Below, in pieces: positions 12,557 through 37,498 of a stretch of DNA of 38,799 nucleotides. Position 1 is the first letter of the stretch, and every line of letters begins with the position of its first letter. A program made the position numbers and the translations under genes. Source of the DNA: an uncultured Mollicutes bacterium (GTDB taxonomy: Bacteria; Bacillota_I; Bacilli_A; RFN20; CAG-288); assembly GCA_900549915.1 (NCBI GenBank), contig URQF01000002.1, forward strand, positions 1-38,799, read 5' to 3'. Under the pieces are notes generated by a model that made no database searches, was not told where the DNA came from, and worked only from the letters and a program-made list of their open reading frames with translations.

Positions 12557-12567
12557 TTATTGTTCCT

Positions 12568-16715: not shown

Positions 16716-16731
16716 AGTTAAATATCCTCCT

Positions 16732-17834: not shown

Positions 17835-17867
17835 TTTGTCCTCCTTCTGCATAATAAATAAAATAAG

Positions 17868-18230: not shown

Positions 18231-18282
18231 AATTTCCTCCATAAGAAAAGGGCCACCGAATGCCTCAGTGACCCTAACAGAT

Positions 18283-19809
18283 TTAATCTAGTGAGAACCA
18301 GAGACAAGGGTAAAAATAATCGCTAAACGAATCATCTTTTAGTTCCCAATCGATTCCAACGACTCTGTAACTTCTACCATACTTTGAATAACTTCTAGTC
18401 ATGAACGGTTTCGTACTACCTAACATAATCATTCTTTCTTTATACCTTGAATATTCTTCGGCACTCAGCAAGAATAATCTTCCGTAGGAATCATCTTCGA
18501 CTATATCTGACTCATTCAGCATTCTAGATTCAAGAGAATTATCTAAAATGGTTTCCAAAACTTTTGAGTCATCCCCAAAACAGATTCCCATTAGTTCTCC
18601 ACCTAAAACAGACTCATTAAGATAACTATTAAGAGATTCGTAGTCTAGATTTCCGTTTTTAATATCTTTAGACAAATCAAAATCATATAGACAATATGGC
18701 TTTTCAGATGTCACAAGTATCTTATCAGAACATTTATCTAGAAGATGCCATCTCATAGGAGGTCTTGAAGTAATTGACCCATTTGCATGCCACTTATATC
18801 TGTTTGATTTATAAGAAAATATTAATTCGGAACCATACTCTGCTCCATATGATTTAGCTATTGAAGTTAGAATAGAAACTAATTTTTTGTCTTTGACTTC
18901 GTCTCCGTAAAGTCCTGTATCTCCGTTTTGAAGGAGAGGGATTTTTATTGCTATCTCTTTTATAACTTCATCTGACGATAGATTTGTAATGTTTCTATCC
19001 CATGAGGTAAAAATATAGTTGTATTCTGAATCATAATAGAAAGGAATAGACGTTCCATCATTCTCATATCTGGGGGATGATCCTTTTTTATATAAGTCTG
19101 TTTTCAGAATTGTTCCATCTGGTGCTTTCCACGTTACTTTGTATCCTTCCCAGTTAATCTCGTCATATAATGCTATAAAGACAGTTGGAGAATAAATTGG
19201 TTGGATTTCTCTATCCCATCCAGCAAATTCGAAATCAGTTATTTGATGGCCGTTTATTTTTCTATCTCTCGTTGGATTGTCAGGTTCAACCGGAATATGC
19301 CCTGCGATTACAGCAGATTCCGAAATTAATGTCCCATCGTAGTCTTCGAACTTTACATTGAAATATTTGTTGGAATCCTCTTCAAACAAAGCATGAATGA
19401 CCATATTCGAATTAATATTGTCGAAATCATTGTCCCATTTTGAAAAGATGAACTTTGTGATAGTTCCATTATTGTTCAAATCGGATTTCGTAGGTTTACC
19501 ACCGTCATATATGGCAGGCATGCCTGGTTCTACAACAGAATGCGTGATTATATTATCATCACCATCTAAAAAATATACGACATATGTTCCGTAACGCTGG
19601 TAGTTATTTGGATCTTCTCCGAGTACAGTAACTTGCCACTCAAAAAAACTAAGGCTACCACCTGCGTTCTTGTAGTCTTCATATTGGTCTTTTTTAGTAT
19701 ATATGCTTACTTCCGTTGTTGGTTCGATTGGATGAGTAGAGCTTGGTCTGTTCTGTACACAGCTTGTAAGAATAAATATCGGAAGGTAGAATAAAATTTC
19801 TTTTCTCAT
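18283..19809 (-). CDS. Prophage-encoded lipoprotein with three Listeria-Bacteroides (Flg_new-type) repeats
   Basis: Signal peptide with lipobox ILTSC. There are three units of the form Y-x-V-x-F...G...P...F-x-GW/SW-D (e.g. FNVKFEDYDGTL...FEFAGWDREI). The C-terminal domain carries RLFLLSAEEY. Confidence 0.65.
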   Translation of the reverse strand: MRKEILFYLPIFILTSCVQNRPSSTHPIEPTTEVSIYTKKDQYEDYKNAGGSLSFFEWQVTVLGEDPNNYQRYGTYVVYFLDGDDNIITHSVVEPGMPAIYDGGKPTKSDLNNNGTITKFIFSKWDNDFDNINSNMVIHALFEEDSNKYFNVKFEDYDGTLISESAVIAGHIPVEPDNPTRDRKINGHQITDFEFAGWDREIQPIYSPTVFIALYDEINWEGYKVTWKAPDGTILKTDLYKKGSSPRYENDGTSIPFYYDSEYNYIFTSWDRNITNLSSDEVIKEIAIKIPLLQNGDTGLYGDEVKDKKLVSILTSIAKSYGAEYGSELIFSYKSNRYKWHANGSITSRPPMRWHLLDKCSDKILVTSEKPYCLYDFDLSKDIKNGNLDYESLNSYLNESVLGGELMGICFGDDSKVLETILDNSLESRMLNESDIVEDDSYGRLFLLSAEEYSRYKERMIMLGSTKPFMTRSYSKYGRSYRVVGIDWELKDDSFSDYFYPCLWFSLD

Positions 19810-19838
19810 GGTAATTCTCCCGATAATATCTTACCACT

Positions 19839-22800
19839 TTAGCAGACAACCATTACCCAAACTTTTGACCGATGACCATCATTTCCTACCCAGACTGTTC
19901 CATCATTATTTATATTTACATTTATGGATTGAAGTTTAGTGCTGCCGCTTAAGCCTCCACTTCCATTCGCAGTTCCAGAATAGTCGTAGGACTGGGAGGC
20001 AAAAATATATCTAGGGTCATCCATTGTCCCAATACACCACCACTGATCCTCATTCATGACTCTTGAAAAGAAATAAACATAGGAAATGGACTCATGTTCA
20101 TCTTCTTCATCGTAATATATATTTCTGGAAAAGGTAAAAACTGTACGAGTACCATACAAAGCTTCTTGTGCCTGAGATGCAATACGTCCCAGATCATATA
20201 ACGCATTATTTTTTCCTTGGATTGAGAAAGAATTCTCAGAATTTTCACCAGTCTTAAAACTTATTCGGTCTGATGATGCAGTTGTATGTAATGAAGTGCA
20301 AATGAGATTATTATCAGAATCTGTGCATAGAATATTGAAGGAGCCGTTTATTGTTGAGTCAGGCCCAGCACCAGGATAATGCATCCGCTTTTCTAAAATG
20401 GAATGAACCTTTATATTGCCACTACCATTGAACTCGGATGCTAATTTCCCTTCATCGTCAAAAGAAGCAGATGATTGACTAGTAAAAATGTTTCCATCAT
20501 AGCGATATTTTAGGATTTCATCGAATTCACTATCGTAACTTTCCTTTCTCATAATTCCGACACTATTAATATCTAGACTTATGAAATAGAATGATGAAAA
20601 AGATAAAAACAAACCATATGTAGGACTTTCAGATGTTCCAGAATTACCTCTAATATCTTCTTCGTTCATAGAATGACCATCTGTTGCAACAATGTCGAAA
20701 TTTTTGCAAACGTCATTTCCACCATGGATGAAACCAGATACTGATAATCCCCCACGAGAAGAGATAACTATATCTATAACTTGTTTCTGCCCTACCCATG
20801 GTCCAACAGTTCCTTTTATATGTACTGCGCCAGCATTGTGGTCGTCTTGTGTTGAGGTTAAAGTTCCAATATATAAGAATCCATGTTTACCTTTTAAGTC
20901 ACCAATTACTTTAAAGATATGTCTGAAAGGATCGTTATTTGTATTAGGATATACATTTCCAAAGAAATTTCCATTGATGCTGGAGTTAGCCATATACATA
21001 TTTCCGTATTTGTCTAGCCTGAATCCTCCATGTCCTTTCTCCCACTGATATTTCATAATGTCAGCATGTTCAGTTTTTGTATCAATTTTGACTTTTGTAT
21101 TCCCAAAAGAATATGGGTACTTGAGTCCTTTTGATGCATAATTGAGAATATAATCCTTTGCGTTCCTTCCGATTCGGATTCCTTCTGTTCCAATATATAT
21201 ACCTTCATCATCTACTATCTTCTGTTCTGCAGCTTCATTGACGAATTGTATAATCTGTCCAATTTTCGAAAATACTTTCTTTCCAATTATTGCATTACTG
21301 ATGACTTTATAGCTGGTTTTCTTCTCGAATTCAGAGAATTCTCTTGGATAATAGATAGACTTATCAGAAATATAGAGTCCGCCAATCTGTCCTTCAGTAG
21401 AAGTAATCTTTCCATTGATTTCACAGTTATCCGCTTCTATTTTTCCATCGGCAGTGACCTTAAAGTTGGATTCTGTAATATTATCAGAGCTGTCTGCCAC
21501 TCGCTGGTTGAGATGGATTCCGTCCGTCCCGATATATAGTGCTGCCTTAGGTGAGCTGATATTAGACTTAGCAGCGATACTATCAACAGTCGTATCGGCT
21601 GGATTGATGGCGGTTCCTACGTTCTTAACGTCGTTGTCAGCAGTTTCATAGTCTGAACATGCTTGTATATATGCCGATTCGGCAGCAGTCTTGGAAGCGT
21701 CAGCATTGTTAATAGATTCATTAGTATCATCACTGATGGCACCATTCAGACTCTTTTCCTGCTCGCCATAGGCTTTTGCTTCATTTAATGCACTAACAGC
21801 AAGATTTAGAGCATCTAATGCTTTCATCCTTACATTACGTGCATCATCCCGAGTTTTCTTTAAGTCAGCCATTTCAGAATCGCTTGGAAGCTTTACGAAA
21901 GAGCCGTTTACCAGTTTTCCATTTTGAATATCGAAGTTAGCGATGTGACCCTCGTTCGATTCCACAACATCAGCTGTAATTTTCCCAGTGATATTCGCAG
22001 AGGGAACTGTCAACACACCACCTTTGACTGTGGCTCCGCCTATATGCATTTCGGTTCCGATGATCGTTCCATCGGATAACGCTATTAGTCCTTTCGGATA
22101 GAGCTTGAATACCCGTACATTCCCGACCACAGCTTCCTCTCCGTCATAAGAGTATCCTACACCGATCAGGCATTCTTCATTCCATGCCGTTGGGACTCTC
22201 AGTACTCCATCACCGGAGGAGGGCGACGAAACTGTCTTTTTTATACGGCTATATGATGTTGAATCGGCTGTATAATGGACAATATATCTAGCGATTGCGG
22301 TAGAACCTGATTTGTCATAGAATGCGAATTTAAGATCCAAGCTCTTTGTTGCACCAATGACATCGAACATGACCTGGAAATAATCATCTGGTTTTAAAGC
22401 CTTTCCGGAAGGAAATTTAATCTTAAAGCTACGGCTTGCCTGGAAGAAAGTGGAAAGTTTACCATCTAATCTGTCACTTCCGTCGTAATCATCCGGTTTT
22501 GTAGAGGGCATCTCACCCATGCGCAATCCATCGTTTGATAGATATACACCATTTGTTTCAGGTGTTGTCAGCGTGTTATAGCTGTCAATTGGATTCCCAT
22601 CAGCGTCACGGTTTGTAAAGCTCCGGATTCCATTCTCGTCTATCCTAAAGCCTTTAGCATCGATATTGCCATTGAGTTTAGCATTCTTTAGACGTTCTTC
22701 GACCAGTGCGGCTGCGCCTTGTTGTCCTTCTGCTAATTTATTTGCCAGATCAATAGAAGCAGCGTTGTAATCCTTTATTGCCTGCTGATATTTTGATTCA

Positions 22801-25800
22801 GCATTTTTCAAATTTTCTGTTGCTGTAGAATTAGCTTTCTCGGCATTTTGATAGTCAGTAGTAGCTGCGTTCAACTTATCCTTTGCATCAGACAGATTGC
22901 TTGCAGCAGTGGAATTCGCTGATTTCGCACTGTTATATTTCGTTGTAGCATCGGCCAATTTGCTTTCCGCATTACTCAGATTCGTGGCAGCGGTCGAGTT
23001 GGCTTGCTCGGCATTACCATATTTGGTTGTCGCATCATCCAATTTACTCTTGGCATCAGCAAGATTGTCCTTAGCAGTATTATTAGCTGTTTCAGCAGCA
23101 TTATACTTATTTGTGGCATCAGCTACTTTTTCGTTGTAGCTTGCTTCAGCAGCGGTGACACTGTCATTATATTTCTTTGTGGCAGCGTCAATTTTGGCCT
23201 GACTGTCTTTTGCCGCGGCATCATACTGTGCCTTTGCATCAGCAACAGACTTATCGTATTCTGTCTTAGCGTCATTCAATGTACTCTGGTACTGGTTCTG
23301 CGCAGATTCTAGTTTTCCGGCTGCATCATCACTTGCCTTTTTTGCCGCATCGTAAGATGATGAAGCATTCTGAAGGTTCTCCTCTGCCTTAGCTAATTTA
23401 TTCGCAGCAGTTTCACTATCTGTCTTTGCAGTATCATAAGCCGTTTTTGCGCCATTGTAGCTTGTCTGAGCATCATTTAATTTAGATGCTGCAGCGTCAC
23501 TATCTGTCTTTGCAGTATTATAGGCATCTTTTGCACTTCCGTAGTTTGTTTCAGCCTCTTTGAGTTTTGAGGTCGCTTCACTATTAGCAGAGGCTGCGCT
23601 GTTGTAGGCATCCTTAGCAGTGGAATATTCGCTTTCGGCTTTGGTGACTCTGTCGGCAGCACTATTGGCATTGCTCGCTGCAGAATTAGCAGAACTAGCA
23701 GCATTATTGGCATTCGAGGTCGCATTATTCAGATCTTCTTTGACGTCATCATCCAATTGCCCGATTGTAATACTCCCGTCAATATTTGCCGACTTCACAT
23801 GCAAATTCTTAGCTGTGACATTCGTTGTCTCGATTGTGTCGTTTACAATTTTAGTAATTCCGCCGCTGTCAACCTTACCATCTCCGCTACCAATCTGAAT
23901 ACTTCCTCGAATATTAGCTGCTGGAACTTGTAATTCTCCATCGACAATCTGACAGCCTCCGATACTTCCGGAGTTTGCGATAATCTCGCCATAGATTTTA
24001 GCGCCATTAGCAACTAAATATCCATCTGAATTGACAGAGAAAGAAGTATTATTCTCACCATTTTGAATTTCTATACTGCCACCTGTGATATTCAATCCAT
24101 TGGCAGTGACGTGACCTTCTCTATCGACTTTGAAGACAGTACCGTCATCACCTGTGATATTGATCTGACCGCTCTTTACGTCAATATCTCCAGATACTTT
24201 AATTTGTCCAGCGGAAAGTGTCTGAGAAATACTGGCATTATCAGCAACTAACATCTTGGCGACAAGTTTGTCAAGCTCGAACTGCGAGGCCTCCAAAATG
24301 CCTGTGCATTTAATACGCTCGGTTTGCAGCTGTCCAATCTGTGCCTTGCTCAATTTTGCATTGATTGCCTGAATATAGTCCGCTGTCACGGTTCTTGCAA
24401 CAATCTGGGATACCTTGTTCTCATCAGTATACCCAGTATCATTAGTAAGCGATGAGACATTATCACCAGTAGAAATCGAGCTGTCGCTAAGAGTATCTTT
24501 CTTCTCTCCTAACTCGATTTTCGTGTAAGAATTAAGGATAGCATTATACTCCGTAGAGATAACTCTTAGTTTCTCATCTACACCCAAATCTGGATAGATG
24601 ACTCCAACAGTATCTCCAATCTCAACAGATTTCAGAATCTTGAGATTATCAGCCTCTGTGATGCTCCATAAATCGAGGAATGAAACATCGGTAGACTTTT
24701 TGATTTTCCCAAGTTTATGTTTCTTGATATATTGTTGTGCTTTCTGTTTCAGTTTCTCTTTGGTCGGCTCTGACTCGAATTCAGAACTGAGATCTAGAGG
24801 AAGAACATACTGATGTTTCCTTGCTTTGGCATCATCAGTATCAAGTTTGATGAACTTCTCGTCGAGCTCGACATGGATAACCTTACTAGTTTCGGTTGTT
24901 GTTGATGCCTCTGATTGTGGAATGACTTCCGAATAATAAATGATCCTGTTCGAAGAAATATTGGATAAATCGGTAACCTTGCCATCGAAGACGACATCTC
25001 CTGCTTTATGGAATGTCCATCCTGACGTATCAGTCAGTTTTTTGAAATATCCATCCTTGACTGCATTACAGGAAACAACTGGGAATTTAGACCAGTTGAT
25101 CTTAATCCATTCTGGGTCTTTTCCCATTCCCTCGATCAAGGTAACACTCTGATTGTATACTTTTTCTTCATATCGAGACGTCTTTGAGTTCCAACAATAA
25201 ATTTTATCCTTATACTGACCTTCCGTAGCAACCTGGACTCCTGATTCATCTACAGGATGATATGGCTCACCACCTTCGCTATAAGATAACCATCCATCTT
25301 GATATGGTTTGTTTCCAACGATATAGACCTTAGTGAATCCAGCGTCCGTAGTATTGGTCGTTGTCGATGTTGTTTCTTTGTGATAAAAAGGATAGACAGC
25401 AGAATATAAATTCTCAGTTGTAGTCTCCTGAGTCATGTCAGTCCTATTCTTCGAATATCTGACCTCAACTCCCTTATCAGATCCACGTCTGCTGCAGAAT
25501 ATAACATTCCATTTGTCATACTTAAATTCAATATCATAAACGGAGCCAATTGAACCAGTAGTGCTTTCATCCGAGCTTGCACTATTGTCACCAGTTGCTG
25601 TCAGGAGAGCTTTAAGATTAGTCGGTGCCGTGAGCTGAAAAGTTTTATAAAATTTCTTATCGATAGAACGAGCGTTTATGAATTCGAACTTGTTTTCGAT
25701 AAGACAGTTTTTCTTGATGTTGTTTATTGTGTCAAGAAAATTAGCTCCTTTAAAACCGCTGACTGGGATGCCGTTCATATCGTATGAAATATGATTGGCA

Positions 25801-26060
25801 TCCACAGTAACGATTCCGTTAATAGGACGACTGATGCTTGCTATTCTGAAAGGCTGTGGGTCAGAAAATGGGTTCGGCTTGCAGTAGATAAGTCTGTTTT
25901 CACGAATCTTATCAAAAATCTGCCCCTTAACAGGGTATTTCAGCGAAAGAGTGTACTGATCATTAAGTCCTTCGGAAACCGTGCATTCTGTTGCATCCCG
26001 TAAAACCCCAAGTCCTAAACTGTCGAACTTGGTTTCATCCTCTTCAAATAGCAAAATCAT
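19839..26060 (-). CDS. Giant tail-associated protein (Tal / phage minor structural protein, 2073 aa)
   Basis: The N-terminus MILLFEEDETKFDSLGLGVL...LNDQYTLSLKYP matches the conserved start of siphophage Tal / prophage-tail endopeptidase-type proteins. The gene follows Dit. It has a central Ala/Asn-rich coiled coil, a long C-terminal region and an AGGAGG RBS. Confidence 0.8.
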   Translation of the reverse strand: MILLFEEDETKFDSLGLGVLRDATECTVSEGLNDQYTLSLKYPVKGQIFDKIRENRLIYCKPNPFSDPQPFRIASISRPINGIVTVDANHISYDMNGIPVSGFKGANFLDTINNIKKNCLIENKFEFINARSIDKKFYKTFQLTAPTNLKALLTATGDNSASSDESTTGSIGSVYDIEFKYDKWNVIFCSRRGSDKGVEVRYSKNRTDMTQETTTENLYSAVYPFYHKETTSTTTNTTDAGFTKVYIVGNKPYQDGWLSYSEGGEPYHPVDESGVQVATEGQYKDKIYCWNSKTSRYEEKVYNQSVTLIEGMGKDPEWIKINWSKFPVVSCNAVKDGYFKKLTDTSGWTFHKAGDVVFDGKVTDLSNISSNRIIYYSEVIPQSEASTTTETSKVIHVELDEKFIKLDTDDAKARKHQYVLPLDLSSEFESEPTKEKLKQKAQQYIKKHKLGKIKKSTDVSFLDLWSITEADNLKILKSVEIGDTVGVIYPDLGVDEKLRVISTEYNAILNSYTKIELGEKKDTLSDSSISTGDNVSSLTNDTGYTDENKVSQIVARTVTADYIQAINAKLSKAQIGQLQTERIKCTGILEASQFELDKLVAKMLVADNASISQTLSAGQIKVSGDIDVKSGQINITGDDGTVFKVDREGHVTANGLNITGGSIEIQNGENNTSFSVNSDGYLVANGAKIYGEIIANSGSIGGCQIVDGELQVPAANIRGSIQIGSGDGKVDSGGITKIVNDTIETTNVTAKNLHVKSANIDGSITIGQLDDDVKEDLNNATSNANNAASSANSAASNANSAADRVTKAESEYSTAKDAYNSAASANSEATSKLKEAETNYGSAKDAYNTAKTDSDAAASKLNDAQTSYNGAKTAYDTAKTDSETAANKLAKAEENLQNASSSYDAAKKASDDAAGKLESAQNQYQSTLNDAKTEYDKSVADAKAQYDAAAKDSQAKIDAATKKYNDSVTAAEASYNEKVADATNKYNAAETANNTAKDNLADAKSKLDDATTKYGNAEQANSTAATNLSNAESKLADATTKYNSAKSANSTAASNLSDAKDKLNAATTDYQNAEKANSTATENLKNAESKYQQAIKDYNAASIDLANKLAEGQQGAAALVEERLKNAKLNGNIDAKGFRIDENGIRSFTNRDADGNPIDSYNTLTTPETNGVYLSNDGLRMGEMPSTKPDDYDGSDRLDGKLSTFFQASRSFKIKFPSGKALKPDDYFQVMFDVIGATKSLDLKFAFYDKSGSTAIARYIVHYTADSTSYSRIKKTVSSPSSGDGVLRVPTAWNEECLIGVGYSYDGEEAVVGNVRVFKLYPKGLIALSDGTIIGTEMHIGGATVKGGVLTVPSANITGKITADVVESNEGHIANFDIQNGKLVNGSFVKLPSDSEMADLKKTRDDARNVRMKALDALNLAVSALNEAKAYGEQEKSLNGAISDDTNESINNADASKTAAESAYIQACSDYETADNDVKNVGTAINPADTTVDSIAAKSNISSPKAALYIGTDGIHLNQRVADSSDNITESNFKVTADGKIEADNCEINGKITSTEGQIGGLYISDKSIYYPREFSEFEKKTSYKVISNAIIGKKVFSKIGQIIQFVNEAAEQKIVDDEGIYIGTEGIRIGRNAKDYILNYASKGLKYPYSFGNTKVKIDTKTEHADIMKYQWEKGHGGFRLDKYGNMYMANSSINGNFFGNVYPNTNNDPFRHIFKVIGDLKGKHGFLYIGTLTSTQDDHNAGAVHIKGTVGPWVGQKQVIDIVISSRGGLSVSGFIHGGNDVCKNFDIVATDGHSMNEEDIRGNSGTSESPTYGLFLSFSSFYFISLDINSVGIMRKESYDSEFDEILKYRYDGNIFTSQSSASFDDEGKLASEFNGSGNIKVHSILEKRMHYPGAGPDSTINGSFNILCTDSDNNLICTSLHTTASSDRISFKTGENSENSFSIQGKNNALYDLGRIASQAQEALYGTRTVFTFSRNIYYDEEDEHESISYVYFFSRVMNEDQWWCIGTMDDPRYIFASQSYDYSGTANGSGGLSGSTKLQSINVNINNDGTVWVGNDGHRSKVWVMVVC
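22740..23735 (-). repeat. In-frame degenerate tandem repeats (Ala/Asn/Ser/Lys-rich coiled coil) within Tal
   Basis: The translation shows about four consecutive 28-aa (84-bp) units of the form ANSTAxxNLxxAxSKLxDATTKYxxAxx, flanked by looser SKLxxAxxxYxxAKxAY units. This low complexity generates the spurious plus-strand ORFs at 22897..23898. Confidence 0.75.
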
Positions 26061-26072
26061 ACAATTTTCCTC

Positions 26073-28688
26073 CTATAACGTCCACCAATTCGGCTTAATC
26101 TTAATCGTGATTCCTTCTATACCGGATTTATCCTGGACAAGATAGTTCAAAAGGTGAGATGTTGTTGGGTCTGAAGAGACCAGAAAATCGCCTTTCTTGT
26201 ACCATGCCCAAGAGGTCTTGTCATCTAAACGATAGTATCCATCTTTCTTGATATAGAGTAGAGCATGAACAGGATTACCATATTCGCTTTCCTCAATCTT
26301 GGATGTATACAGATCATTCTCTGGATACGATGGCAATGATTCCAAATAGTAAATAGTTGTATCATCACTATATTTACTTTCGTTAATCAGGTCACCATTA
26401 CTGAGTTTCTTCCACTCAGCATTTGTGTCCCATTTGTAGTAACCATCTTTAGTGGCGTAGACTCTATATTTAGAATCTACTCTGTCTTCATCCTTCTCTG
26501 CATCAATACCTTCAACCCATTCGAACTTCAGATATGGTGCTAATTCAGTCAACTTATCAAGCTGCTCCTGGTTAAATGAAAGATTATGACTCTGCTCGTA
26601 GCTCGTAGGGAGAGTCTCAATCATGCAGATGGTATTCTCATTTTCAGGACTTCCAAGATCAATGAAAGCGCCAATTTCCAAATCTTTCCACTCAGTCCAG
26701 ACATCACCGTCTTCTGAAGTTGACTCAAGTTTTCTGTATTTAGCTTTCTTTAAGACTTTAATCGACAAATCGCCAGAGTTGAGAATATCTTTCTTATCAT
26801 TGGCGACAACCGTAGAATCCAACCATTCAGGCCATCCTGATGATTTTGAATAATTCACTTTGGTCGCATCGTCAATGAAATAGAAAGTATTCGACTGAGT
26901 AATATCGCTGAAATAGTCTGGAACAGTGTCCCCGACATTGAGATGCTTCCAACTAGAGAACTGCTTTGGATCGTCTTCTTTCTCACAACCAGAGTAATTG
27001 GCTCTGAACCATCCTGCTTTCTTTGCAGTATAAACTGGGATTGTCAACGAACCTGTAACAGTAATAGGGCAAGCAGTTGTGACAATCTTCGTCTTGTTGC
27101 CATTCTTGTCTGTTTTTGTGCCATAAACATCCTCATATTGAGGAAGGACGTCAACATACTTGTAGTCGAGACTGGTCTTTGAATTCCCTAGGCTGCTAAG
27201 CATCGAACTCTGAAAAGCCTGTTTAAACAAACTCCAGGTGACGCTTCCTAAATCATGAGCATCGGCGTCGTAATACTCCCAGCCAGATCGATTCTTACTG
27301 AATTTCGACAACAGACCTGTCTTTTCCGCATAGAAGTATCCAGCCTTGCCAGTCTGATAATGTACCTTCTTCGGAGACCCATCAGAATCATAGTCAATAG
27401 AAATTTTTAGCCAATCAGGCATATCCGAATATTCGACATCCATCTCGGTTTTGCCGTTTACAATCTTGGCAGGGCAGTATTTTATTGTCACCTGACTATC
27501 CTGAGTAGAATCAGCAAGAACGACTCCTCCTGAAGCGACATATTTCCATTTCTTGAAACCAGTCGCATAGAAGTAGCCTCCAGAAGTTAGAGATTTATGA
27601 ACTTTGTAACTATACAAAGCTCTTCCGCTTTTATCTGTTTTTCCTTCCGACACAAGTTCTACAAATCCGGAATCGGAAACATTCTCACTGGTATTTGTAA
27701 GGAATGTGGATGAATAACACTGCTCTTTAAGGATGTCATCGAATGATTTGAATGAGTAGTTTTTTCCTTTCTCCTGAGCGAGTAATGAATAAGCCTCAGC
27801 ATAGAAAACATCCTGGTACGCAATCTTCTTAGAATTGAAAGTTGGGATAACGACTTTCTTCTGCTTTTGTTCAAGAACTCTATCATAAGGAGAATAGACA
27901 ATATCCATCTCAGACTGAGTGTCTGCTATTACGTCGTTATATGATGGTATAGACCTAAGGTTTCTCTCGTATTTTGAAATTGTGACTTTAGTGCTTCCTT
28001 TTGGAAACTTTGGAAAAACTTTTCCGTTGATATTTATCTTACTCGCAAGATCCTGAGTCTGATAGTAGACTTCTTGATTCTCAGAATCTATCGTAATAGA
28101 AGGAGTATCAATGTCTTTGAATGTGACATCACTAATTGTCTCCCCATCATTCTCAAGACTCAGCAGGATTTCAGAAGAAATATCAGGCTTTAATCCTTCA
28201 AGAGTAATTTCAGGAAGTGATGCGAATTGAGAAGGGTTTTCCAAAGAGAACTCATTCGAAGTAAACGATAGTATCTTCTCTCCGCTCTTAAGAAAGCGCT
28301 GGGGTTTGCAATCGAAATCGACCGAAAAACTGATGGCTCCATCACAAATATTAGTGAAAGAGCCACCAGACGAGTATTTAGCCAATCTGTAGGCTGTAGG
28401 ATCGTAATCATCTTCGAGGCGCCGATACCCTCTGTCCGAAGTCAACCACTTTACAATATCTTGCGAATTGGATATGAAATCAGTTCCTGGCTTAAATCCA
28501 ACACCTAAGGAATAGGTTCGAGTGATGTTTTTATATGAACCATTATCAGTAATAACATCTCCGTTTCGTCCAGGAATATGAGTAGATGTAACGTCTTTCT
28601 CTGGATATTGATATGCAGGCGGAGACTGAATCACCAGCCCAAGATCTAGAGAAGATATACCATTCCAAACTAGTTTTTTAAGAGCCAT
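26073..28688 (-). CDS. Distal tail protein (Dit), greatly extended (871 aa)
   Basis: The N-terminus LVWNGISSLDLGLVIQ...THIPGRNGD (Arg is CGA) matches the Sipho_tail/Dit family. It lies between TMP and Tal. About 600 extra residues suggest an evolved Dit with add-on domains. Confidence 0.75.
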   Translation of the reverse strand: MALKKLVWNGISSLDLGLVIQSPPAYQYPEKDVTSTHIPGRNGDVITDNGSYKNITRTYSLGVGFKPGTDFISNSQDIVKWLTSDRGYRRLEDDYDPTAYRLAKYSSGGSFTNICDGAISFSVDFDCKPQRFLKSGEKILSFTSNEFSLENPSQFASLPEITLEGLKPDISSEILLSLENDGETISDVTFKDIDTPSITIDSENQEVYYQTQDLASKININGKVFPKFPKGSTKVTISKYERNLRSIPSYNDVIADTQSEMDIVYSPYDRVLEQKQKKVVIPTFNSKKIAYQDVFYAEAYSLLAQEKGKNYSFKSFDDILKEQCYSSTFLTNTSENVSDSGFVELVSEGKTDKSGRALYSYKVHKSLTSGGYFYATGFKKWKYVASGGVVLADSTQDSQVTIKYCPAKIVNGKTEMDVEYSDMPDWLKISIDYDSDGSPKKVHYQTGKAGYFYAEKTGLLSKFSKNRSGWEYYDADAHDLGSVTWSLFKQAFQSSMLSSLGNSKTSLDYKYVDVLPQYEDVYGTKTDKNGNKTKIVTTACPITVTGSLTIPVYTAKKAGWFRANYSGCEKEDDPKQFSSWKHLNVGDTVPDYFSDITQSNTFYFIDDATKVNYSKSSGWPEWLDSTVVANDKKDILNSGDLSIKVLKKAKYRKLESTSEDGDVWTEWKDLEIGAFIDLGSPENENTICMIETLPTSYEQSHNLSFNQEQLDKLTELAPYLKFEWVEGIDAEKDEDRVDSKYRVYATKDGYYKWDTNAEWKKLSNGDLINESKYSDDTTIYYLESLPSYPENDLYTSKIEESEYGNPVHALLYIKKDGYYRLDDKTSWAWYKKGDFLVSSDPTTSHLLNYLVQDKSGIEGITIKIKPNWWTL

Positions 28689-30648
28689 GAGCTAATTTAC
28701 CGCCTTTCTGCCTCTTACTCAGTTCAATATTAACCTGCTGAGCAAAGGTCTTAGGATCGTCAACACCATAGACATTGAATACTGGTTGATAAGTGTTCGT
28801 CGAGCTATATGTATTTGATGTACTTCCATAATCCGAGCTATTCCGATTGGAACTGCGCATGTTTTTCGACACACTTTGAGTATTATCATAAGAAGAATCA
28901 GAAGAGACATCGATATCTCCAGAGACGTCATCGAGTTGACTCTGAATCTTGGAATCGTCAACGACAGGGTTAACATTGACGTCATAACTGTTGTCATTTC
29001 CGAAAGCACTATTAAATGCATCTTGAACAGCATCAACGCCTTCTCTAGTAGATTTAGCTAAATCGTCATTCCTATCTTTCCTTGTCTTTGAGATATTACT
29101 TGTGGCAGTACGTGCAGCCTCAGTAATACCACTTCCAGATGCCCACCGTTCTATAACAGCTTCAGTTGATGAATTGTCGACCTCAAGATTATTACGCATC
29201 CAGTTGGCGACCTTTTTTCCTACCCAGTTATTACTGAACATTGTGGCAAGACCTTCAATAATACCATTCCATAGTTCTCCTAATAGATACTTGATGGAAT
29301 TGATTAGATCTGACCAGATGTTATGCAAGACATCACCTATAAATTTAAGTATCTTACCAATACATGTCTTAATAGTTTCTTTGAAGACATAAGCAATACC
29401 TTCAATAGCTTCCGGAATCATCTTGCAAAGTGCAGCAAGGAATATAATCCTATCTTTTAGTAATGTTCCGACAAGGGTTCCAGCCATCCGGAAAATCATA
29501 CCAGTTACCTTCAGAACCATCTGGACAATTACCTTAACTAATTTTCCAATATTTTTGATTAATGCGTTAATCCTAGCAACCAAGAAATTAATAAGAGATT
29601 TTACGAGTTTTGGTGCGTTTGCTGTTAACAAATTAATTACTTTGATGATAATACTCAGAACCTTAGACATCATAGATGGAATATGTTCGTCCAAGGCAGA
29701 AAGGAGCAATTCAAGAACATTAAATACAGTATCGATTAAATCTTTTGCATTCTCATTGATGAGTTTGAGGACTCCTTTAACTAGATCGTTAACTAGATCA
29801 ATTATCTTTGGTATCCAGTCTTTCAACAAGGCATAGATCGAATCGCCATCTTCCATCAAATTATTGATGAATGTAGTGATTAACCCATGTATCTGCTCCA
29901 TCGCATTTTGAAGTCCAGAAACTAGTGCATCAGTGATGGCAATTGAAAGTTCAGATAGACTTTCCGCTATAGTTTCTATGTTCTCAGTGACAGTTGTGCA
30001 GAATGGAACTAGATTGGTAGTCAGTGCTTCGATTCCCATAGAGGCAGTCAAGATGCCGATACCAATCAACGTAAGAGCAGCACTTAGAGCCAATATCGCA
30101 CGTATCGCCGCCATAATCACTACTGAAACAAGTGCTAAGGCAGTAAAGGCTCCAGCGATTGCAAGAATATCAACGAACATTTTTCCGATGTTCAATTCCT
30201 GCATTGCTTCCATAGCTTTTGAGAAAACTAGGATGGCTGAAGAAAATACGAGCCTGGCAGATGCAGCAACAAGCAAAGATGCTGAGAAAACGACTAGACC
30301 AGCAACTCCGATTAGACCGGTTCCTCCGCTGGCAGATATCAAAGCCACAATTCCAGCAAATAATGCTAATACTGAGACCAATACTCCAGCTGCGATTAGC
30401 CTAGATTTCCATGGCACAGCAGCTAATTGTTTTACTGCTTCGGCAAAGACTAGGAGAGATAAACTAATAGCAGTCCTGGATCCTACTGCTGCAACAAGTT
30501 TAGTTGCACTACTCATAGAGTTAGATAACTTGATGAGGATCGCAATAACCCCAGCATTCAAGGTTAGCATTGTTTCTATTATTTCAATGTTTGTTTGACT
30601 TATACCAAGTTCTCTTTGAAAATAGTTTTTGAAAACGAATAGGAGCAT
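28678..30648 (-). CDS. Tape measure protein, probably 5'-truncated
   Basis: It sits directly upstream of Dit. Composition is helical, Ala/Leu/Ile-rich, with hydrophobic segments and a polar C-terminus. There is no SD before the ATG at 30648. The frame stays open upstream to 30721 but is overlapped there by a plus-strand gene. Confidence 0.6.
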   Translation of the reverse strand: MLLFVFKNYFQRELGISQTNIEIIETMLTLNAGVIAILIKLSNSMSSATKLVAAVGSRTAISLSLLVFAEAVKQLAAVPWKSRLIAAGVLVSVLALFAGIVALISASGGTGLIGVAGLVVFSASLLVAASARLVFSSAILVFSKAMEAMQELNIGKMFVDILAIAGAFTALALVSVVIMAAIRAILALSAALTLIGIGILTASMGIEALTTNLVPFCTTVTENIETIAESLSELSIAITDALVSGLQNAMEQIHGLITTFINNLMEDGDSIYALLKDWIPKIIDLVNDLVKGVLKLINENAKDLIDTVFNVLELLLSALDEHIPSMMSKVLSIIIKVINLLTANAPKLVKSLINFLVARINALIKNIGKLVKVIVQMVLKVTGMIFRMAGTLVGTLLKDRIIFLAALCKMIPEAIEGIAYVFKETIKTCIGKILKFIGDVLHNIWSDLINSIKYLLGELWNGIIEGLATMFSNNWVGKKVANWMRNNLEVDNSSTEAVIERWASGSGITEAARTATSNISKTRKDRNDDLAKSTREGVDAVQDAFNSAFGNDNSYDVNVNPVVDDSKIQSQLDDVSGDIDVSSDSSYDNTQSVSKNMRSSNRNSSDYGSTSNTYSSTNTYQPVFNVYGVDDPKTFAQQVNIELSKRQKGGKLAHGS

Positions 30649-30653: not shown

Positions 30654-31400
30654 GTGGTAAATTTTCAATATTACAAAGATGTTTGGGACCATTGTCGGGA
30701 GATTCTGAAGAAGTACTATATCAAAGACTTCAAAAACCAAATTACATCTTATAAGCAAGGAGAAGTCTTTTACGATGAAGCTCCGGCATATAGGAAAACC
30801 TTTCCAAAGCTTGGAAGATTCGATAACTTTTTCTATTATGCCTATTCTAAGAAAGAATTCCATCCTAAGAATTTCCTTACCGAACAGCCAAAAGATGCCG
30901 TCTACTGGAAATATTACAGGAAAGATGGAAAACCTCTATTAGTCAATTTCTGTATTCCTGTCATTTCAATAAATTATGATGACTTAGCAAAAGATTACAT
31001 TCCGATTGATATCGGGTATTTCATCTATGATCGTAACATAGGGGACATTACCAACTTCTGCATCACAGAGGAGAAAGAAGACGGAAGGCATTATCTAGAT
31101 ATCACTACTGGGTACAGGATGGTAGAAGAAACCGAGCCTTTCTTTGTTACAGAATATGTTGTCTCAAAGGACAGAAAACGAGTGGATTCTTATTTGAGGA
31201 ACGGACTTGTTTGCTTTCACAGACATGCTACACTCTACCATAATCAGGACTATAGGGATTCAGTTCGAGAAGACAGCAAATTCGTCCGGATTTCAGACCT
31301 GAAAATACCAGTTTTAAAAGAAACAAGGAAACCCTATGTACAGGGAGATCAGACTTCTCATTATAAGAAGCTGATTAAGGAAGGATTTAAACCAGTATAA
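30654..31400 (+). CDS. Hypothetical protein (248 aa) at the prophage truncation junction
   Basis: GTG start with GGAG 8 nt upstream. No recognisable motif. Opposite strand to all flanking genes. Confidence 0.5.
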   Translation: MVNFQYYKDVWDHCREILKKYYIKDFKNQITSYKQGEVFYDEAPAYRKTFPKLGRFDNFFYYAYSKKEFHPKNFLTEQPKDAVYWKYYRKDGKPLLVNFCIPVISINYDDLAKDYIPIDIGYFIYDRNIGDITNFCITEEKEDGRHYLDITTGYRMVEETEPFFVTEYVVSKDRKRVDSYLRNGLVCFHRHATLYHNQDYRDSVREDSKFVRISDLKIPVLKETRKPYVQGDQTSHYKKLIKEGFKPV

Positions 31401-31518
31401 CAATCCAATAAGAGAGTTGTTCTACTATAGTTTGATTCAAGCACATCGAAAAAAGCTGTTTTCTTTTGAAATAAAGCAAGAACACGGATTCTTAGATTAA
31501 GGATTTGATTCTCTTAAA

Positions 31519-31556
31519 CAAATCAAAAGACCCGCTTTATCCTTTCAAAACGGGTC
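31519..31556 (-). terminator. Rho-independent terminator of the ABC/kinase operon
   Basis: On the minus strand, the stem gacccg (31556..31551) / cgggtc (31534..31529) is followed by ttttgattt. Confidence 0.45.
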
Positions 31557-31590
31557 CTGGTTAAAATGGAAATAATGATTTGATTTAAAA

Positions 31591-32892
31591 CTACCTAAGT
31601 CCGGCAATATAAGATTGCCCAAGGCGACGGAAATGCTCATCCGAAGTAAACACTTCAATAGAAGACAGACCTTTGTTCTGAAGATATTCTTTTGTACCAA
31701 GCAACAGGTATTCGCCTCCTTTTCCTGTCCTGACTCTACCTAAAGCAAGAACAGATGTGAAAGGAAGAAAACGATGGAAGAAAGTAAGAGCAGAACCGAG
31801 ATAAGTCCCCATTTCCTTATAGCACTCAAGAACAACCGGATTATTCTTATCTGCTTCTTTCTGTATCTGGACAAGTTGTTGGGGAAGCGTACCGTCAAAA
31901 GAAATACCGGCATTCTTGCTTAGACGGATAATTCCTTTTTGAGAAAGATATTCAGTACCTGCTCCTTTAATGCCTAAATCATAATGAGAATAGGCGGACG
32001 GAGAATAGTCTAGCGGAATCTTACCCCATTCATTAATCCATCCATTGAAGGAAGAATGACAGCAGTATCCGCTAGCAAGCCCTGTTCCAAAAGCAAGTCC
32101 GACAATATTGTCTTTCTTAAAAACAAGACTTCCTCCAAAGGCAGATATATCTCCATCATTATGTACAAGAACAGGAACATTCGAAAATTCTTTTTTTGCG
32201 ATGTCCATGAAAATGGACCGTACATAGCGATCCTTATCCTCTTGAGGAACAGACATGAATAGAGTCGGTTCTAGAAGCTGGTTATGAGAAACAACACCAG
32301 CCGTCGAGATTCCGATAGAGTCCACATGAGGAAGATGACTAGCTGCGTGTTTAAGACTCTCTAAAATTCCATTGTAGTGATAATGATAGTCTTTTTCACA
32401 CTTAGGAGACCACAATACTTCTTCGGAAAAGACATCCTTTCCATCGATGATAGCTGTGACCTTGCGATCACTGCCGCCTTCATCAAAACCAATCCGGCAT
32501 CCTTTGCTCTCCCCGTTTAATCTTGTCCAAGAACATCTGTCTTTATAGATCTGTCTCGTAGAGGTAAAAGAAAAAGGTGTCTGGAAGATACGTTCCATCC
32601 GCTTTATGCTGGTATTCATCTCCTCATCATTCCGAATTCTCTGTTTCCTAAAATCAAAGAAGAAAGCATCGCCATTGAATTTAAAGTCCGTACCACCAAC
32701 AAGCCACATTAAAGTAAGAAGAATCTTCTTTATATAGTAAAAGGATTCTTCCCTATTATCACTATGTAGTCCGTGATAAGTATAGGAGATCTCATCCCCG
32801 CGCTGAATGGTCAGCAAATACGGATGGTGGCTTCTCCCCTCAAAAGAGGAGAGAGCACTATCCGCGCCGATGAAATCGGAATTATATTTCAT
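31591..32892 (-). CDS. ROK-like sugar kinase (ASKHA fold) with an N-terminal extension
   Basis: Motifs GFDEGGSD (phosphate-1-like), IGISTAGVV, LVHNDGDISAFGG and LAFGTGLASG. The ROK zinc-Cys motif is absent. The gene starts 3 nt after the ATPase stop. Confidence 0.55.
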   Translation of the reverse strand: MKYNSDFIGADSALSSFEGRSHHPYLLTIQRGDEISYTYHGLHSDNREESFYYIKKILLTLMWLVGGTDFKFNGDAFFFDFRKQRIRNDEEMNTSIKRMERIFQTPFSFTSTRQIYKDRCSWTRLNGESKGCRIGFDEGGSDRKVTAIIDGKDVFSEEVLWSPKCEKDYHYHYNGILESLKHAASHLPHVDSIGISTAGVVSHNQLLEPTLFMSVPQEDKDRYVRSIFMDIAKKEFSNVPVLVHNDGDISAFGGSLVFKKDNIVGLAFGTGLASGYCCHSSFNGWINEWGKIPLDYSPSAYSHYDLGIKGAGTEYLSQKGIIRLSKNAGISFDGTLPQQLVQIQKEADKNNPVVLECYKEMGTYLGSALTFFHRFLPFTSVLALGRVRTGKGGEYLLLGTKEYLQNKGLSSIEVFTSDEHFRRLGQSYIAGLR

Positions 32893-32895
32893 GGA

Positions 32896-35604
32896 TTAGT
32901 CCGCTAGAATTTCGAGTAAGCCAGAGGAAATCCTCTTTCCAGAAACCTTATCAAAGAGAAGAATGCCTTTTCCTTTGGTATTAATCTCCAAAGTCTCGTT
33001 CCTACTATAGTCAGAATCACCGAAAATAACAGAAGTCAGAAGATAGCCATCGACAGAAAGACGGATGGTCGTTTCCCTGCCGGAAGGCATTGCGGAATAG
33101 ACTTTTCCTTCCATGCCTTTTCCTTGTTCAGCAATCGTGAAGAACTCAGGACGGATACCAATGACATAATCATCTTTTTCAATGACTTTCTCATCACGAC
33201 GTTCTTTATCACCATCCTCAGTTAACCTGTGATAGTTGAAGAGAGTATCTTTGTTTCCTTTTTCAACATAGGAACGAAGTTTCTTTAAACGAAGAAGTTC
33301 TTCTTCTTTCTTCTCTGCTTCCAAATCTCGTGTCTTGATTTCCTCTTCTAAGGAAATCGGTGCATTCGGATAGAAGACTGCATGCCGATTATTAAAGAAA
33401 GTCCTATATAAAGAACCATCTTCTCTCTCCTTTACCTTCGTTTCAATGAAGGTAATCGCTGGATTACCGACAAAGTCAGCAACAAAGAGATTATTCGGAC
33501 GACGATAGACCGTCAATGGTGCATCATACTGCTGAAGAACACCATTGTTCAATAAGCAGATGTGGGTGGCAAGAGTCCTTGCTTCGAGCTGATCATGGGT
33601 AACATAGACAAAGGTAGCTCCGGTATCCCGGTGCAAACGCTTAAGCTCAGAACGCCTTTCCAGACGAAGCTTTGCATCAAGGTTGGAAAGCGGTTCATCC
33701 CTGAAGAGAACCTTCGGTCCAGGAGCTAACGTACGTGCAATAGCAACACGCTGCTGCTGACCACCAGATAATTCATTCGGGAAACGATCCCTGAATTCTT
33801 CGACTTTGACAATACGGGCTGCATGGCGAAGTTTCAACTCGATTTCTTCTTTGTCCAAAGCACGGACTTTGGAAAGATGGCAGGCTTTTCCATTAATCTT
33901 GGAGATAGCAATATTCCTCTCGCCACGGGCAGAATTGATAAGGGAAGTGTATTTTTCCCTCTCCATAGAGTAATCCTTCAGAGTCTTGTATTTTGGCTCT
34001 AAGGCAGCATAAGTCCTCTTAACAAGGGAAGCAGCAGCCTCGCGGATCCTATCATGAGCTTCTTTGTACTCTTTCTTATTTGGATGAGAGACCGATTCGA
34101 CGACTTCTTCCAAGAATTCAACAAGACCATTACGGATAGCTTCTTCTGTTCCAAGGCAAGCATCATCTGCTTTTTCATAGAAAGCTTTGATGGCATGGTT
34201 CTTCTTGGCTTCATCGATGTGATTGACTAAGTCAAGGACATTGGCTTTAGCTTCCGGAACAACACGTTCTGCCTGATCAAGGAACCGTTTCCTAGCCGCT
34301 TTGTTTGCTTTATGATCAACCTTGTAACTAGCCCCTTCCACGTATTCGAATGATTTGATAATCTTGTTCTGATCTTCTTTCGGAAGATAAGAGATTTCCT
34401 TCTTCAGGGAAGAATAGAATTCATCAAGGGTTCCATGTCCGATAGCAGAGATAAGTTTATCGAAATAAGGTTCAATACCCTCGCTGATCTGCAAAGAATA
34501 GTTCCGCATCGTCTTATTGTTCGAAACCATCTGGGCATTGATTTTCTTTTCATCATTGGTTGCATAAGCTACCATCCTCTGCTGAAGCAAAAGAATCGTC
34601 CTATGAATAGAATCATCTCCAAGGAAGAAAAGAGAATCCTTGATTTCTTCAAAGAACGCATTAATCTTATCTTTTTCTTCTAGATAAGCAGGAATATTCT
34701 CTTCCCTAATCTGGATATCCTTTTTCAGAACTTCACGTTCGCTCAAAGGAAGAAGACTCCTAGCTTCCTTCCTCTTCTCGATATGATTCGCTAAATGTTG
34801 ATTCTTCTCAGAAAGCTTCCTCTCAACACCAAAGAGACGATTTTCCTCTTTCAGAGTATCTCCCGCTTTTTCAAGTGCATAAGCCTGCTTGAGGAAGGAG
34901 TCTACATTTCCGCCATCTGTCCTAGCCTTGTTATAGCCTGGAATCTGAACAAGCTGACCATCATCTAAGACCTGAATATCTTTCTGCATCCAAGCTGCTT
35001 TCCTTTGATCCAAAGCAGCATTGCATTCTGAGATTTTCAAAGCGACCTTATTCTCGACATCGCCATTTTCCAAATGAAGCTTAAATACTTCCTTTGCAGT
35101 GTATTGACTGACTGTGAATTCATCAATAATCTTGATGATAGCACGGCTATCAATAATACGTCCTTTCTTGTCTTTGGCATCATTGACAAGCTTAATGACT
35201 TTATTAGGATCCTGAAGAACACGAATAACATCCTTACGAGTCTTGTATTTGAAATCACAGACCGGGAGCTTTTCCTTGACGTTCTTAAGACCGAAAGTGA
35301 TGTTCTGATAGACGGTCCTATTGGGCCAGAGAGCATAGTTCTGGAAAAGGAAACCGACATCACGCTTATTAGCAGGAATGTTGATACCTGCCTCGGAATC
35401 AAAGACAACCTTATCGCCGATTTTGATTTGTCCGGAAGTCGGTGTTTCAAGACCCGCAATCCTACGAAGGATGGTTGTCTTACCGCATCCGGAAGGTCCT
35501 AAAAGAGTAATGAACGACTTGTCTGGAATATCTAAGCTGACATGATCGGTTGCATAGAAGTCTTTCCAGCGTTTGACAATATCCGTTAAAACAATACTTG
35601 GCAT
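32896..35604 (-). CDS. ABC transporter ATP-binding protein, MalK/MsmX/UgpC type, with a ~470-aa internal insertion
   Basis: Walker A is GPSGCGKTT. TILR-[AGG]-IAGLE has its AGG at 35461..35463. FQNYALWPN-[AGG]-TV has its AGG at 35317..35319. The signature is LSGGQQQRVAIAR (both Arg are CGT). Walker B LF-[AGG]-DEPLSNLD has its AGG at 33700..33702. LE-[AGG]-R has its AGG at 33655..33657. THDQLEA-[AGG]-TLA has its AGG at 33577..33579. A C-terminal regulatory domain is present. Confidence 0.92.
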   Translation of the reverse strand: MPSIVLTDIVKRWKDFYATDHVSLDIPDKSFITLLGPSGCGKTTILRRIAGLETPTSGQIKIGDKVVFDSEAGINIPANKRDVGFLFQNYALWPNRTVYQNITFGLKNVKEKLPVCDFKYKTRKDVIRVLQDPNKVIKLVNDAKDKKGRIIDSRAIIKIIDEFTVSQYTAKEVFKLHLENGDVENKVALKISECNAALDQRKAAWMQKDIQVLDDGQLVQIPGYNKARTDGGNVDSFLKQAYALEKAGDTLKEENRLFGVERKLSEKNQHLANHIEKRKEARSLLPLSEREVLKKDIQIREENIPAYLEEKDKINAFFEEIKDSLFFLGDDSIHRTILLLQQRMVAYATNDEKKINAQMVSNNKTMRNYSLQISEGIEPYFDKLISAIGHGTLDEFYSSLKKEISYLPKEDQNKIIKSFEYVEGASYKVDHKANKAARKRFLDQAERVVPEAKANVLDLVNHIDEAKKNHAIKAFYEKADDACLGTEEAIRNGLVEFLEEVVESVSHPNKKEYKEAHDRIREAAASLVKRTYAALEPKYKTLKDYSMEREKYTSLINSARGERNIAISKINGKACHLSKVRALDKEEIELKLRHAARIVKVEEFRDRFPNELSGGQQQRVAIARTLAPGPKVLFRDEPLSNLDAKLRLERRSELKRLHRDTGATFVYVTHDQLEARTLATHICLLNNGVLQQYDAPLTVYRRPNNLFVADFVGNPAITFIETKVKEREDGSLYRTFFNNRHAVFYPNAPISLEEEIKTRDLEAEKKEEELLRLKKLRSYVEKGNKDTLFNYHRLTEDGDKERRDEKVIEKDDYVIGIRPEFFTIAEQGKGMEGKVYSAMPSGRETTIRLSVDGYLLTSVIFGDSDYSRNETLEINTKGKGILLFDKVSGKRISSGLLEILAD

Positions 35605-35607
35605 AGT

Positions 35608-37422: not shown

Positions 37423-37498
37423 TTTTATCTCCTTAATGGGGAAGAAGGACGGAGAAACCTTCTCCGTCCTTCTACAGATTCAGAATCAAATACGAATT

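Follow-up and report, generated by a model that had tools for sequence, protein, structure and literature searches.

Does a phage that lives in a host with a reassigned sense codon write its own genes in the host's code, and if so, how completely? The question is raised by a defective prophage in a 38,799-nucleotide stretch of DNA from an uncultured Mollicutes bacterium (assembly GCA_900549915.1, contig URQF01000002.1, positions 1 to 38,799; hereafter the window), in which AGG codons occur within the 3' part of a tape measure protein (TMP) gene and in the tail genes that follow it. Escape from phages and other foreign DNA is a long-proposed benefit of changing the genetic code, and differences in code have been suggested to act as a barrier against phages and transferred genes, or as a weapon in the same conflict; to our knowledge, the reassignment from arginine to methionine in the host clade is the only one of its kind in bacteria. 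We report that the open reading frame (ORF) at 28678-30648 is very probably the 3' third of the TMP of a ~39-kb temperate siphophage infecting Bacilli in which AGG encodes methionine, that AGG is likewise read as methionine in the phage, and that the shift of the phage towards this codon is partial.

The host is a member of the Bacilli clade (GTDB UBA7642 / CAG-288) whose AGG codons have changed meaning from arginine to methionine. Positions 30553-38799 of the window are 93.5% identical in nucleotides to a contig (L001) of the metagenome-assembled genome 'Bacillales bacterium UBA4682', a named member of the recoded clade (PMC8629427). Host genes of the window, those within 30654-38725 pooled with those within 700-8334, use AGG 23.3 and ATG 7.5 times per 1000 codons; these values (233 and 75 per 10,000) agree with the 209-235 AGG and 59-69 ATG per 10,000 codons published for the clade (PMC8629427) and make AGG the dominant methionine codon of the host genes. 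In the host mnmE, which has 11 AGG and no internal ATG codons, AGG aligns with methionines of solved MnmE structures (GARrA with GARMA, NGKrDL with NGKMDL), and all eight of the codon changes touching AGG between the host genes of the window and those of UBA4682 are exchanges of AGG and ATG. The window holds no tRNA gene and hence no host tRNA(CCU), which is found elsewhere in the host genome and is of the methionine type (PMC8629427).

The tape-measure reading frame and the reading of AGG

The ORF on the minus strand at 28678-30648 comprises 656 codons, and its residues 26-656 align by phmmer with residues 1524-2154 of P0001, a full-length TMP of 2154 amino acids (aa) encoded on the phage contig L009; the window and L009 agree in 511 of 624 codons. 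The frame matches PHROG tape-measure families (down to 1.9e-26), its tblastn matches include annotated tape-measure proteins, its full-length relative carries the Pfam domain TMP_3, and it lies directly upstream of the Dit and Tal genes. A preliminary description of this DNA had taken 28678-30648 as the tape-measure gene; the homology bears this out, but the frame is a 5'-truncated fusion which retains only the C-terminal ~29% of the protein, the N-terminal domain being gone and the first 32 codons being host flank. It holds 18 internal ATG codons and eight AGG codons. Alignment columns at these AGG codons come from P0001 and 39 homologues (21-42% identity); together with the TMP part they are as follows (residues numbered in the 656-codon frame):

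28678..30552, minus strand: 3' part of the TMP, approximately residues 1531-2154 of the 2154-aa P0001, that is, its last ~624-631 codons
30475..30477, minus strand: AGG, residue 58; column L25 M7 A2 F2 I2 S1; AGG kept in L009 and in the phage contig L011
30400..30402, minus strand: AGG, residue 83; column I22 L11 M4 A1 V1
30253..30255, minus strand: AGG, residue 132; column L22 I7 M7 F3
29572..29574, minus strand: AGG, residue 359 (LVA-x-INAL); column L15 I9 F8; Leu in three standard-code phages
29449..29451, minus strand: AGG, residue 400 (KD-x-IIFLAAL); column F10 L7 I4 M2 V2; CTC in the phage contig L013
29080..29082, minus strand: AGG, residue 523, charged context ISKT-x-KD-x-NDD; column V12 I8 M3 A3; Met in phiFL2B and NatCom_3870
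29071..29073, minus strand: AGG, residue 526, the same charged context; column T10 I7 A2 G2 V2; Leu in two phages
28711..28713, minus strand: AGG, residue 646, charged context LSK-x-QKGG; column Q13 M10 K4; ATG in L013

The preliminary description had listed the first five of these codons, which are indeed in frame on the minus strand at the positions it gave, and had argued from their hydrophobic surroundings that methionine would fit and arginine would be odd. The surroundings of those five are as described; the three AGG codons in charged contexts (523, 526 and 646) had been left out, and in the homologue columns they behave like the other five. Exchanging arginine for methionine at the AGG codons, a comparison that had been put forward as a check, shifts Kyte-Doolittle window averages by only ~0.3, which is not decisive because arginine beside hydrophobic or transmembrane-like helices is normal. 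The argument from context is thus weak alone, and from the sequences available it is the homologue columns, rather than the hydrophobic context, that settle how AGG is read.

Across the full length of P0001, the residues of the homologues in its 23 AGG columns are 82% hydrophobic, 11% Met and 0% Arg, as against 82%, 24% and 0% in the ATG columns, 26%, 2% and 28% in the AGA columns and 21%, 1% and 25% in the CGN columns. The fit of methionine, and the misfit of arginine, thus hold in the homologues, the hydrophobic context being weak evidence by itself.

A second comparison, codon by codon, is offered by L013, which shares 37% aa identity with the window phage in the TMP, 50% in Dit and 63% in the N-terminus of Tal. 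It extends to three further genes of the remnant:

26073..28688, minus strand: Dit, 871 aa; one AGG, at 27954-27956, which pairs with ATC (Ile) in L013
19839..26060, minus strand: Tal (tail-associated lysin/fibre), 2073 aa, Pfam Prophage_tail; seven AGG and 19 internal ATG codons
11634..12014, minus strand: SPP1-type holin (Pfam Holin_SPP1, phrog_263); two AGG, paired with ATG and TTG in L013

The N-terminus of Dit matches the gene upstream of Tal in siphophages, and the L013 gene to which it is 50% identical has a faint match to SPP1_Dit. In Tal, AGG 206 corresponds to Leu in all six other phages aligned by tblastn and to CTT (Leu) in L013, AGG 372 and 414 pair with ATG, and AGG 1139, 1632 and 1681 pair with I, V and Q, respectively. 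Altogether, 16 AGG codons of the window can be paired with L013 and face M4 L3 V2 I2 Q2 T A E, R and K being absent; the 94 AGA or CGN codons face R40 and K11, and the ATG codons M19 L13 I6 V4. Were AGG to behave as an arginine codon, the probability of finding no R or K in 16 pairs would be 3.7e-6; the pattern is more than chance would give. An AGG codon in the TerL gene of L009 aligns with a Val of a solved terminase, and among close phage relatives AGG and ATG replace each other at Tal 603 and Tal 1184, with further changes between AGG and CTT and between AGG and ATC. Of the 26 AGG codons in the remnant, 21 could be assessed, including all eight in the TMP; R/K-dominated columns hold none of these, hydrophobic or methionine columns 15, and polar or variable ones six, so that the examination of TMP, Dit and Tal homologues which the preliminary description had called for came out on the side of methionine. 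Homologue columns and codon pairs together show statistically that AGG is read as methionine in this phage lineage, with arginine written as AGA or CGN.

Finding P0001 depended on the method. A word-based protein homologue search with the TMP gave no match, nor did a related-locus search of viral contigs, and it was an exhaustive HMMER search that found P0001. As stored, in standard-code translation, P0001 bears 23 false arginines at its methionine-coding AGG codons, and these may be the reason why the word-based search missed it. Two phage copies that are otherwise 98% identical (L009 13839-14238, L011 1506-1627) differ by ~400 bp inside the TMP gene, at tandem hydrophobic repeats of ~60 residues (KNIYAMIGAFTILTAN...); the difference reflects either variation in tail length or a collapse in assembly.

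Share of AGG among methionine codons in the phage, its host and its relatives

The remnant as a whole is the following feature:

10548..30552, minus strand: prophage remnant; tail-tip, receptor-binding and lysis modules of a ~39-kb temperate siphophage; AGG 4.0 and ATG 15.0 per 1000 codons

The share of AGG among methionine codons in the remnant, the host and the complete relatives of the phage is:

Host genes in the window: 0.76 (115/152)
Host flanks of three other prophage copies: 0.72-0.92
Island genes beside the remnant (recombinase, helicase fragment): 0.68
Prophage remnant: 0.21 (26/123)
L009, TerL to TMP: 0.27
L017, early genes: 0.22
L017, late genes: 0.16

The less complete codon shift that had been suspected in the phage is confirmed by the contrast of 0.21 with 0.76 (Fisher p = 4.5e-20), and the count of about 20 remaining ATG codons in both TMP and Tal corresponds to 18 and 19 internal ones, against none in mnmE. 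AGG is not the dominant methionine codon of the remnant (40 per 10,000 codons, versus 150 for ATG); where methionine positions are conserved with L013, the window has 19 ATG and four AGG, and the in-frame frequency of 4.0 AGG per 1000 is well below the off-frame frequency of 18.7 per 1000. Arginine is encoded in the phage by 10.2 AGA and 11.7 CGN per 1000 codons, and in the host by 6.5 and 22.3. Since the low AGG share is uniform over the phage genome and is found in complete copies, it is a property of the phage lineage and not a product of decay after integration.

These relatives reconstruct the phage. L009 carries the DNA of P0001 (10001-16465) together with TerL, portal, protease-capsid and tail-assembly genes, and L011 carries the phage on through Dit, Tal and the downstream genes. 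The remainder is found on L017 and L020, two contigs of 38.7-38.9 kb: the genes for lysis, one for a 105-aa protein, one for a tyrosine integrase of 402 aa with a Zn-ribbon, and an early region that includes a DUF5906 primase-helicase. All eight TMP AGG codons are identical in the window, L009 and L011, and every comparable AGG of the remnant recurs unchanged in one or more of the close relatives L009, L011 and L012. At three other loci, the genes that flank integrated copies have the AGG shares of 0.72-0.92 given above, and all four integrated copies examined, that of the window included, lie in recoded hosts. With AGG at Met/Leu/Ile-type sites, arginine written as AGA or CGN, the same AGG codons in complete copies and recoded flanks, the phage lineage is adapted to the variant code, as the preliminary description had supposed.

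Sister lineages of the phage use AGG differently. In the TMP of L013, two of five AGG codons stand at conserved arginine columns (DTQEF-R, R28/39; LEG-R-ADLF, R34/39), where L009 has AGA and CGT; the other three are in variable columns rich in K, S and T. Over all its genes that could be aligned, the AGG codons of L013 (n = 19) face nine R, six K, no M and no AGG in the recoded lineage. L025 and L026 resemble L013: two Tal arginines, for example, are written AGG in L026, where the window has AGA and L013 has CGT. AGG occurs 1.8-3.0 times per 1000 codons in these three and 3-5 times in the recoded lineage, at a different class of positions. No host flank is present in L013, L025 or L026-L029, all of which have the lysis-to-early-gene arrangement. 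Because the sister lineages keep AGG as a rare arginine codon, the phage family would span the code boundary. We give an even chance to the full account that follows from this: one temperate siphophage family spans a sense-codon reassignment, with at least three lineages (L013, L025, L026) in which AGG is arginine and one lineage, present at several loci of AGG to Met hosts, which purged its arginine AGG codons and regained AGG at about one fifth of its methionine sites; the low share would reflect a relatively recent crossing, and the barrier would be leaky, overcome by a few missense-avoiding substitutions per 1000 codons.

In mechanistic terms, AGG in the phage would be decoded by the host tRNA(CCU) of methionine type, which we presume because the phage DNA examined yielded no tRNA gene. 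AGG would have been removed from arginine sites, which are now AGA or CGN, and would then have appeared at sites of the Met/Leu/Ile type; the loss of a few AGG-Arg codons per 1000 would have been enough to make the lineage compatible with the new code. We favour a slow gain of AGG-Met since then through ATG to AGG changes, the selected equilibrium of the host being as yet unreached; continuing recombination with standard-code relatives, or selection against AGG in phage genes, are alternative causes of the low share.

Three other explanations have been weighed. If the phage genes were in the standard code, AGG would be a rare arginine codon in unadapted foreign DNA and the hydrophobic contexts would be ordinary arginines flanking helices. 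At 4.0 per 1000, AGG in the remnant does resemble that of the standard-code relatives in frequency, AGA is a common arginine codon in the remnant, as it is in low-GC genomes with the standard code, and hydropathy by itself cannot tell the two readings apart, arginine by transmembrane-like helices being normal. We nevertheless consider this extremely improbable, given that the 21 assessed AGG codons avoid R/K-dominated columns and that their column make-up equals that of ATG columns, that the window lineage has AGA or CGT at conserved arginine sites for which L013 uses AGG, and that no R or K occurs among the 16 pairs. It is also very improbable that AGG arose only after integration, as a dead remnant ameliorated towards host codon usage with no adaptation of a living phage: the element is truncated and probably non-functional, and ATG to AGG is a synonymous change common in the host, but the comparable AGG codons are all shared with L009, L011 or L012, which are separate phage copies (L009 keeping head, packaging and full-length TMP genes), and complete ~38.8-kb phage contigs have shares of 0.16-0.27, the remnant showing no excess of AGG.

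More serious, though still unlikely, is the proposal that the low AGG share is actively maintained, whether by alternation between recoded and standard hosts, by frequent recombination with standard-code relatives, or by selection against ambiguous or slow decoding of AGG. The uniformity of the share between early (0.22) and late (0.16) genes speaks for it, as do the deficit of in-frame relative to off-frame AGG and the availability of standard-code sister lineages for module exchange; a possible wobble reading of AGG by tRNA-Arg(UCU) has been discussed (Shulgina & Eddy 2021, PMC8629427). It is opposed by the AGG codons in conserved hydrophobic columns, where arginine would be disruptive in a standard-code host, and by the finding that all four integrated copies examined are in recoded hosts.

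Certain observations count against an adapted phage that reads AGG as methionine, or at least limit the case for one. Five of the 26 AGG codons in the remnant have no alignable homologue, and the six in polar or variable columns (T, Q, E, N) fit methionine and are not diagnostic. At Dit 89 the codon is CGG in the window, L010 and L011 but AGG in L009, a singleton 40-65 nucleotides from the end of the contig, and at Tal 1972 the CGT of the window is AGG in L012, in a region of only 79% identity. The methionine assignment is a statistical one, made from sequences. No tRNA gene was found in the phage loci searched, though one might lie between the primase and TerL, outside these loci; and the slow gain of AGG as the cause of the low share is itself something that we infer.

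Junctions, host island and neighbouring genes

The element in the window is a cryptic (defective) prophage that holds only the distal 20 kb of the ~39-kb phage. It is ~95% identical in nucleotides to L011 over 14921-30554 and also matches L009; its genes run in the order TMP' - Dit - Tal - fibre genes - holin, and the head, packaging, tail-tube, integrase and early genes that it lacks are present in L009 and L017. Its surroundings are:

30654..38725: host core genes encoding an unknown 248-aa protein, a ROK-like protein and an ABC transporter ATPase, permease and binding protein; recoded codon signature, 93.5% nucleotide identity to UBA4682
30553..30648, minus strand: host flank of the left deletion junction; 32 codons, including the ATG, joined in frame to the truncated TMP
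10530..10560: attR-type junction, at which the phage end '...GGCAATTTCATATTCT' adjoins an interrupted SNF2 helicase gene
8626..10519, minus strand: host-island genes, non-phage; 3' 293 codons of an 877-aa SNF2-type helicase and a 312-aa tyrosine recombinase, both by Pfam domains

On the left, identity to UBA4682 stops sharply at 30553 and identity to the phage (L009, L011) at 30554, with no repeat in common. A contig scan with the TMP ORF matched only UBA4682, through the 32-codon host leader, and this match exposed the deletion junction; the identical 656-aa fusion ORF occurs in at least three contigs, of which two loci from different samples were examined (L030, L031). On the right, the phage end '...GGCAATTTCATATTCT' is common to the complete phage contigs (L017, L020) and to the prophage copies at three other host loci (L016, L018, L021); beyond it the sequences of the phage copies diverge, and the window continues as the UBA4682 helicase. 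Because the same two junctions appear in independent assemblies (L022, L024, L030, L031), they are not assembly artefacts, and a chimeric assembly was rejected as the source of the TMP fusion. The prophage would thus have integrated in the SNF2-helicase gene of a variable host island, at a precise attR common to other copies, and a later deletion, seen as the left junction and probably a single event, would have taken out all the DNA between the host flank and TMP codon ~1530.

Integrated copies of the phage occupy at least four unrelated host loci, among them the SNF2 helicase gene and sites beside a dNK/PAP2 region, SpoU/ProRS and dnaA. The phage end is constant at these sites (window ~10548; L016, L018 and L021 ~10430-10440; L017 and L020 ~10430), and likeness at the crossover extends over only a few bases (TAAACA / GTAGCA), which suggests that the integrase of the 402-aa Zn-ribbon type is of low specificity.

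The island genes at 8626-10519 are 81% identical in nucleotides to UBA4682, where the 877-aa SNF2-type helicase is intact; their AGG share (0.68) is host-like, and AGG and ATG replace each other between the two genomes. The recombinase (8626-9564) was considered as the prophage integrase and rejected: it is common to the phage-free UBA4682, its AGG usage is host-like, and the integrase that the phage itself encodes is of the 402-aa Zn-ribbon type. The preliminary description had cited conserved phage arginines written as CGA or AGA, in Dit and in this gene; the codons are right (Arg41 of the Dit PGRNG motif is CGA, Arg141 and Arg252 of the recombinase are AGA and CGA), but the latter gene belongs to the host island. 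At the site of the remnant, UBA4682 (L001 10114-19585) has an RHS-repeat/AHH-nuclease toxin and, downstream of it, a small gene; also present are a Dcm cytosine methylase, a gene for a MutH-like endonuclease, an unknown 415-aa gene and the intact 877-aa SNF2/ResIII helicase. This part of L001, the counterpart of 10540-30553 in the window, is a variable toxin and defence island beside a tyrosine recombinase.

Two further genes of the remnant deserve mention. Between the fibre genes and the holin, the gene at 12014-12556 (minus strand, 180 aa) has an HELGH motif, similar to HExxH, that reads HEVGH in phage NatCom_17901, in which its AGG 70 is Leu. It has no Pfam or PHROG match, and no recognisable endolysin was seen in the remnant, so that its product could be the lysis enzyme or a membrane metallopeptidase. 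A tblastn search with g12568 against the phage collection gave no match. Between Tal and the downstream tail genes, the gene at 18283-19809 (minus strand, 508 aa) has a GC content of 0.348 and encodes arginine with 16 AGA and one CGN. The blastn match to L011 lacks a counterpart, and L019 has no gene listed of such a size; a 508-aa gene stands at the same position in L016-L018 and L022, and the L013 homologue is encoded on the other strand. The gene has the look of a mobile accessory gene.

Two observations concern the host genes. The ABC-transporter ATPase (32896-35604, minus strand, 902 aa) has its ABC_tran domain split in two stretches by an insert of several hundred charged, coiled-coil-like residues, which is unusual for a subunit of the MalK/UgpC type. 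The ORF at 4247-4735 (minus strand, 162 codons, no AGG, three ATG, GC content 0.323) overlaps the 3' end of a CitMHS transporter ORF and is either not a gene or recently acquired DNA with non-host codon usage.

Comparison with known systems and significance

Phages that read AGG as methionine are already known. Shulgina & Eddy 2021 predicted this reading for two phage assemblies without a tRNA(CCU) gene (PMC8629427), both from the phage set of Al-Shayeb et al. 2020 (PMC8629427), and our literature search found nothing further on phages of the AGG to Met clade. The window phage resembles these two in its host lineage, in the use of AGG as methionine and in that no tRNA(CCU) gene was found in its DNA, and it differs in being a ~39-kb temperate siphophage seen as a truncated prophage. 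New here, and absent from the text of Shulgina & Eddy, are a remnant with defined junctions, the contrast in AGG:ATG usage between phage and host (0.21 versus 0.76) and the standard-code sisters.

As with the phages of stop-codon-recoded hosts and the self-recoding phages (code 4, code 25, code 15 crAss-like, Lak), the coding of a mobile element must suit the translation system that it uses. The consequences of a mismatch are different: misreading of AGG gives silent-looking missense rather than truncation or read-through, and the window phage follows the code of its host. The TMP itself resembles those of other siphophages (the TMP_3 PF20155 N-terminal family; PHROGs 4372 and 5493) in its long helical and hydrophobic repeats and in the gene order TMP-Dit-Tal, and differs in that the window holds the C-terminal ~29% and 32 unrelated codons; with this part alone, it cannot measure a tail.

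The finding matters beyond this locus in several respects. Gene callers that apply the standard code mistranslate the phage proteins, placing arginine for methionine in database entries such as P0001. The phage family appears to have members on both sides of the Arg to Met boundary, those on the recoded side being fully compatible with the new code, and the cost of crossing can be estimated: standard-code relatives carry ~2-3 AGG-Arg per 1000 codons, some at conserved arginines, and the recoded lineage 3-5 AGG-Met per 1000 at hydrophobic sites. The gap between an AGG share of 0.21 in the phage and one of 0.76 in its host offers a measurable quantity for the speed at which mobile DNA equilibrates with a new code. 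If the family does span the boundary and the crossing was recent, the reassignment of a sense codon would be only a leaky barrier to phages.

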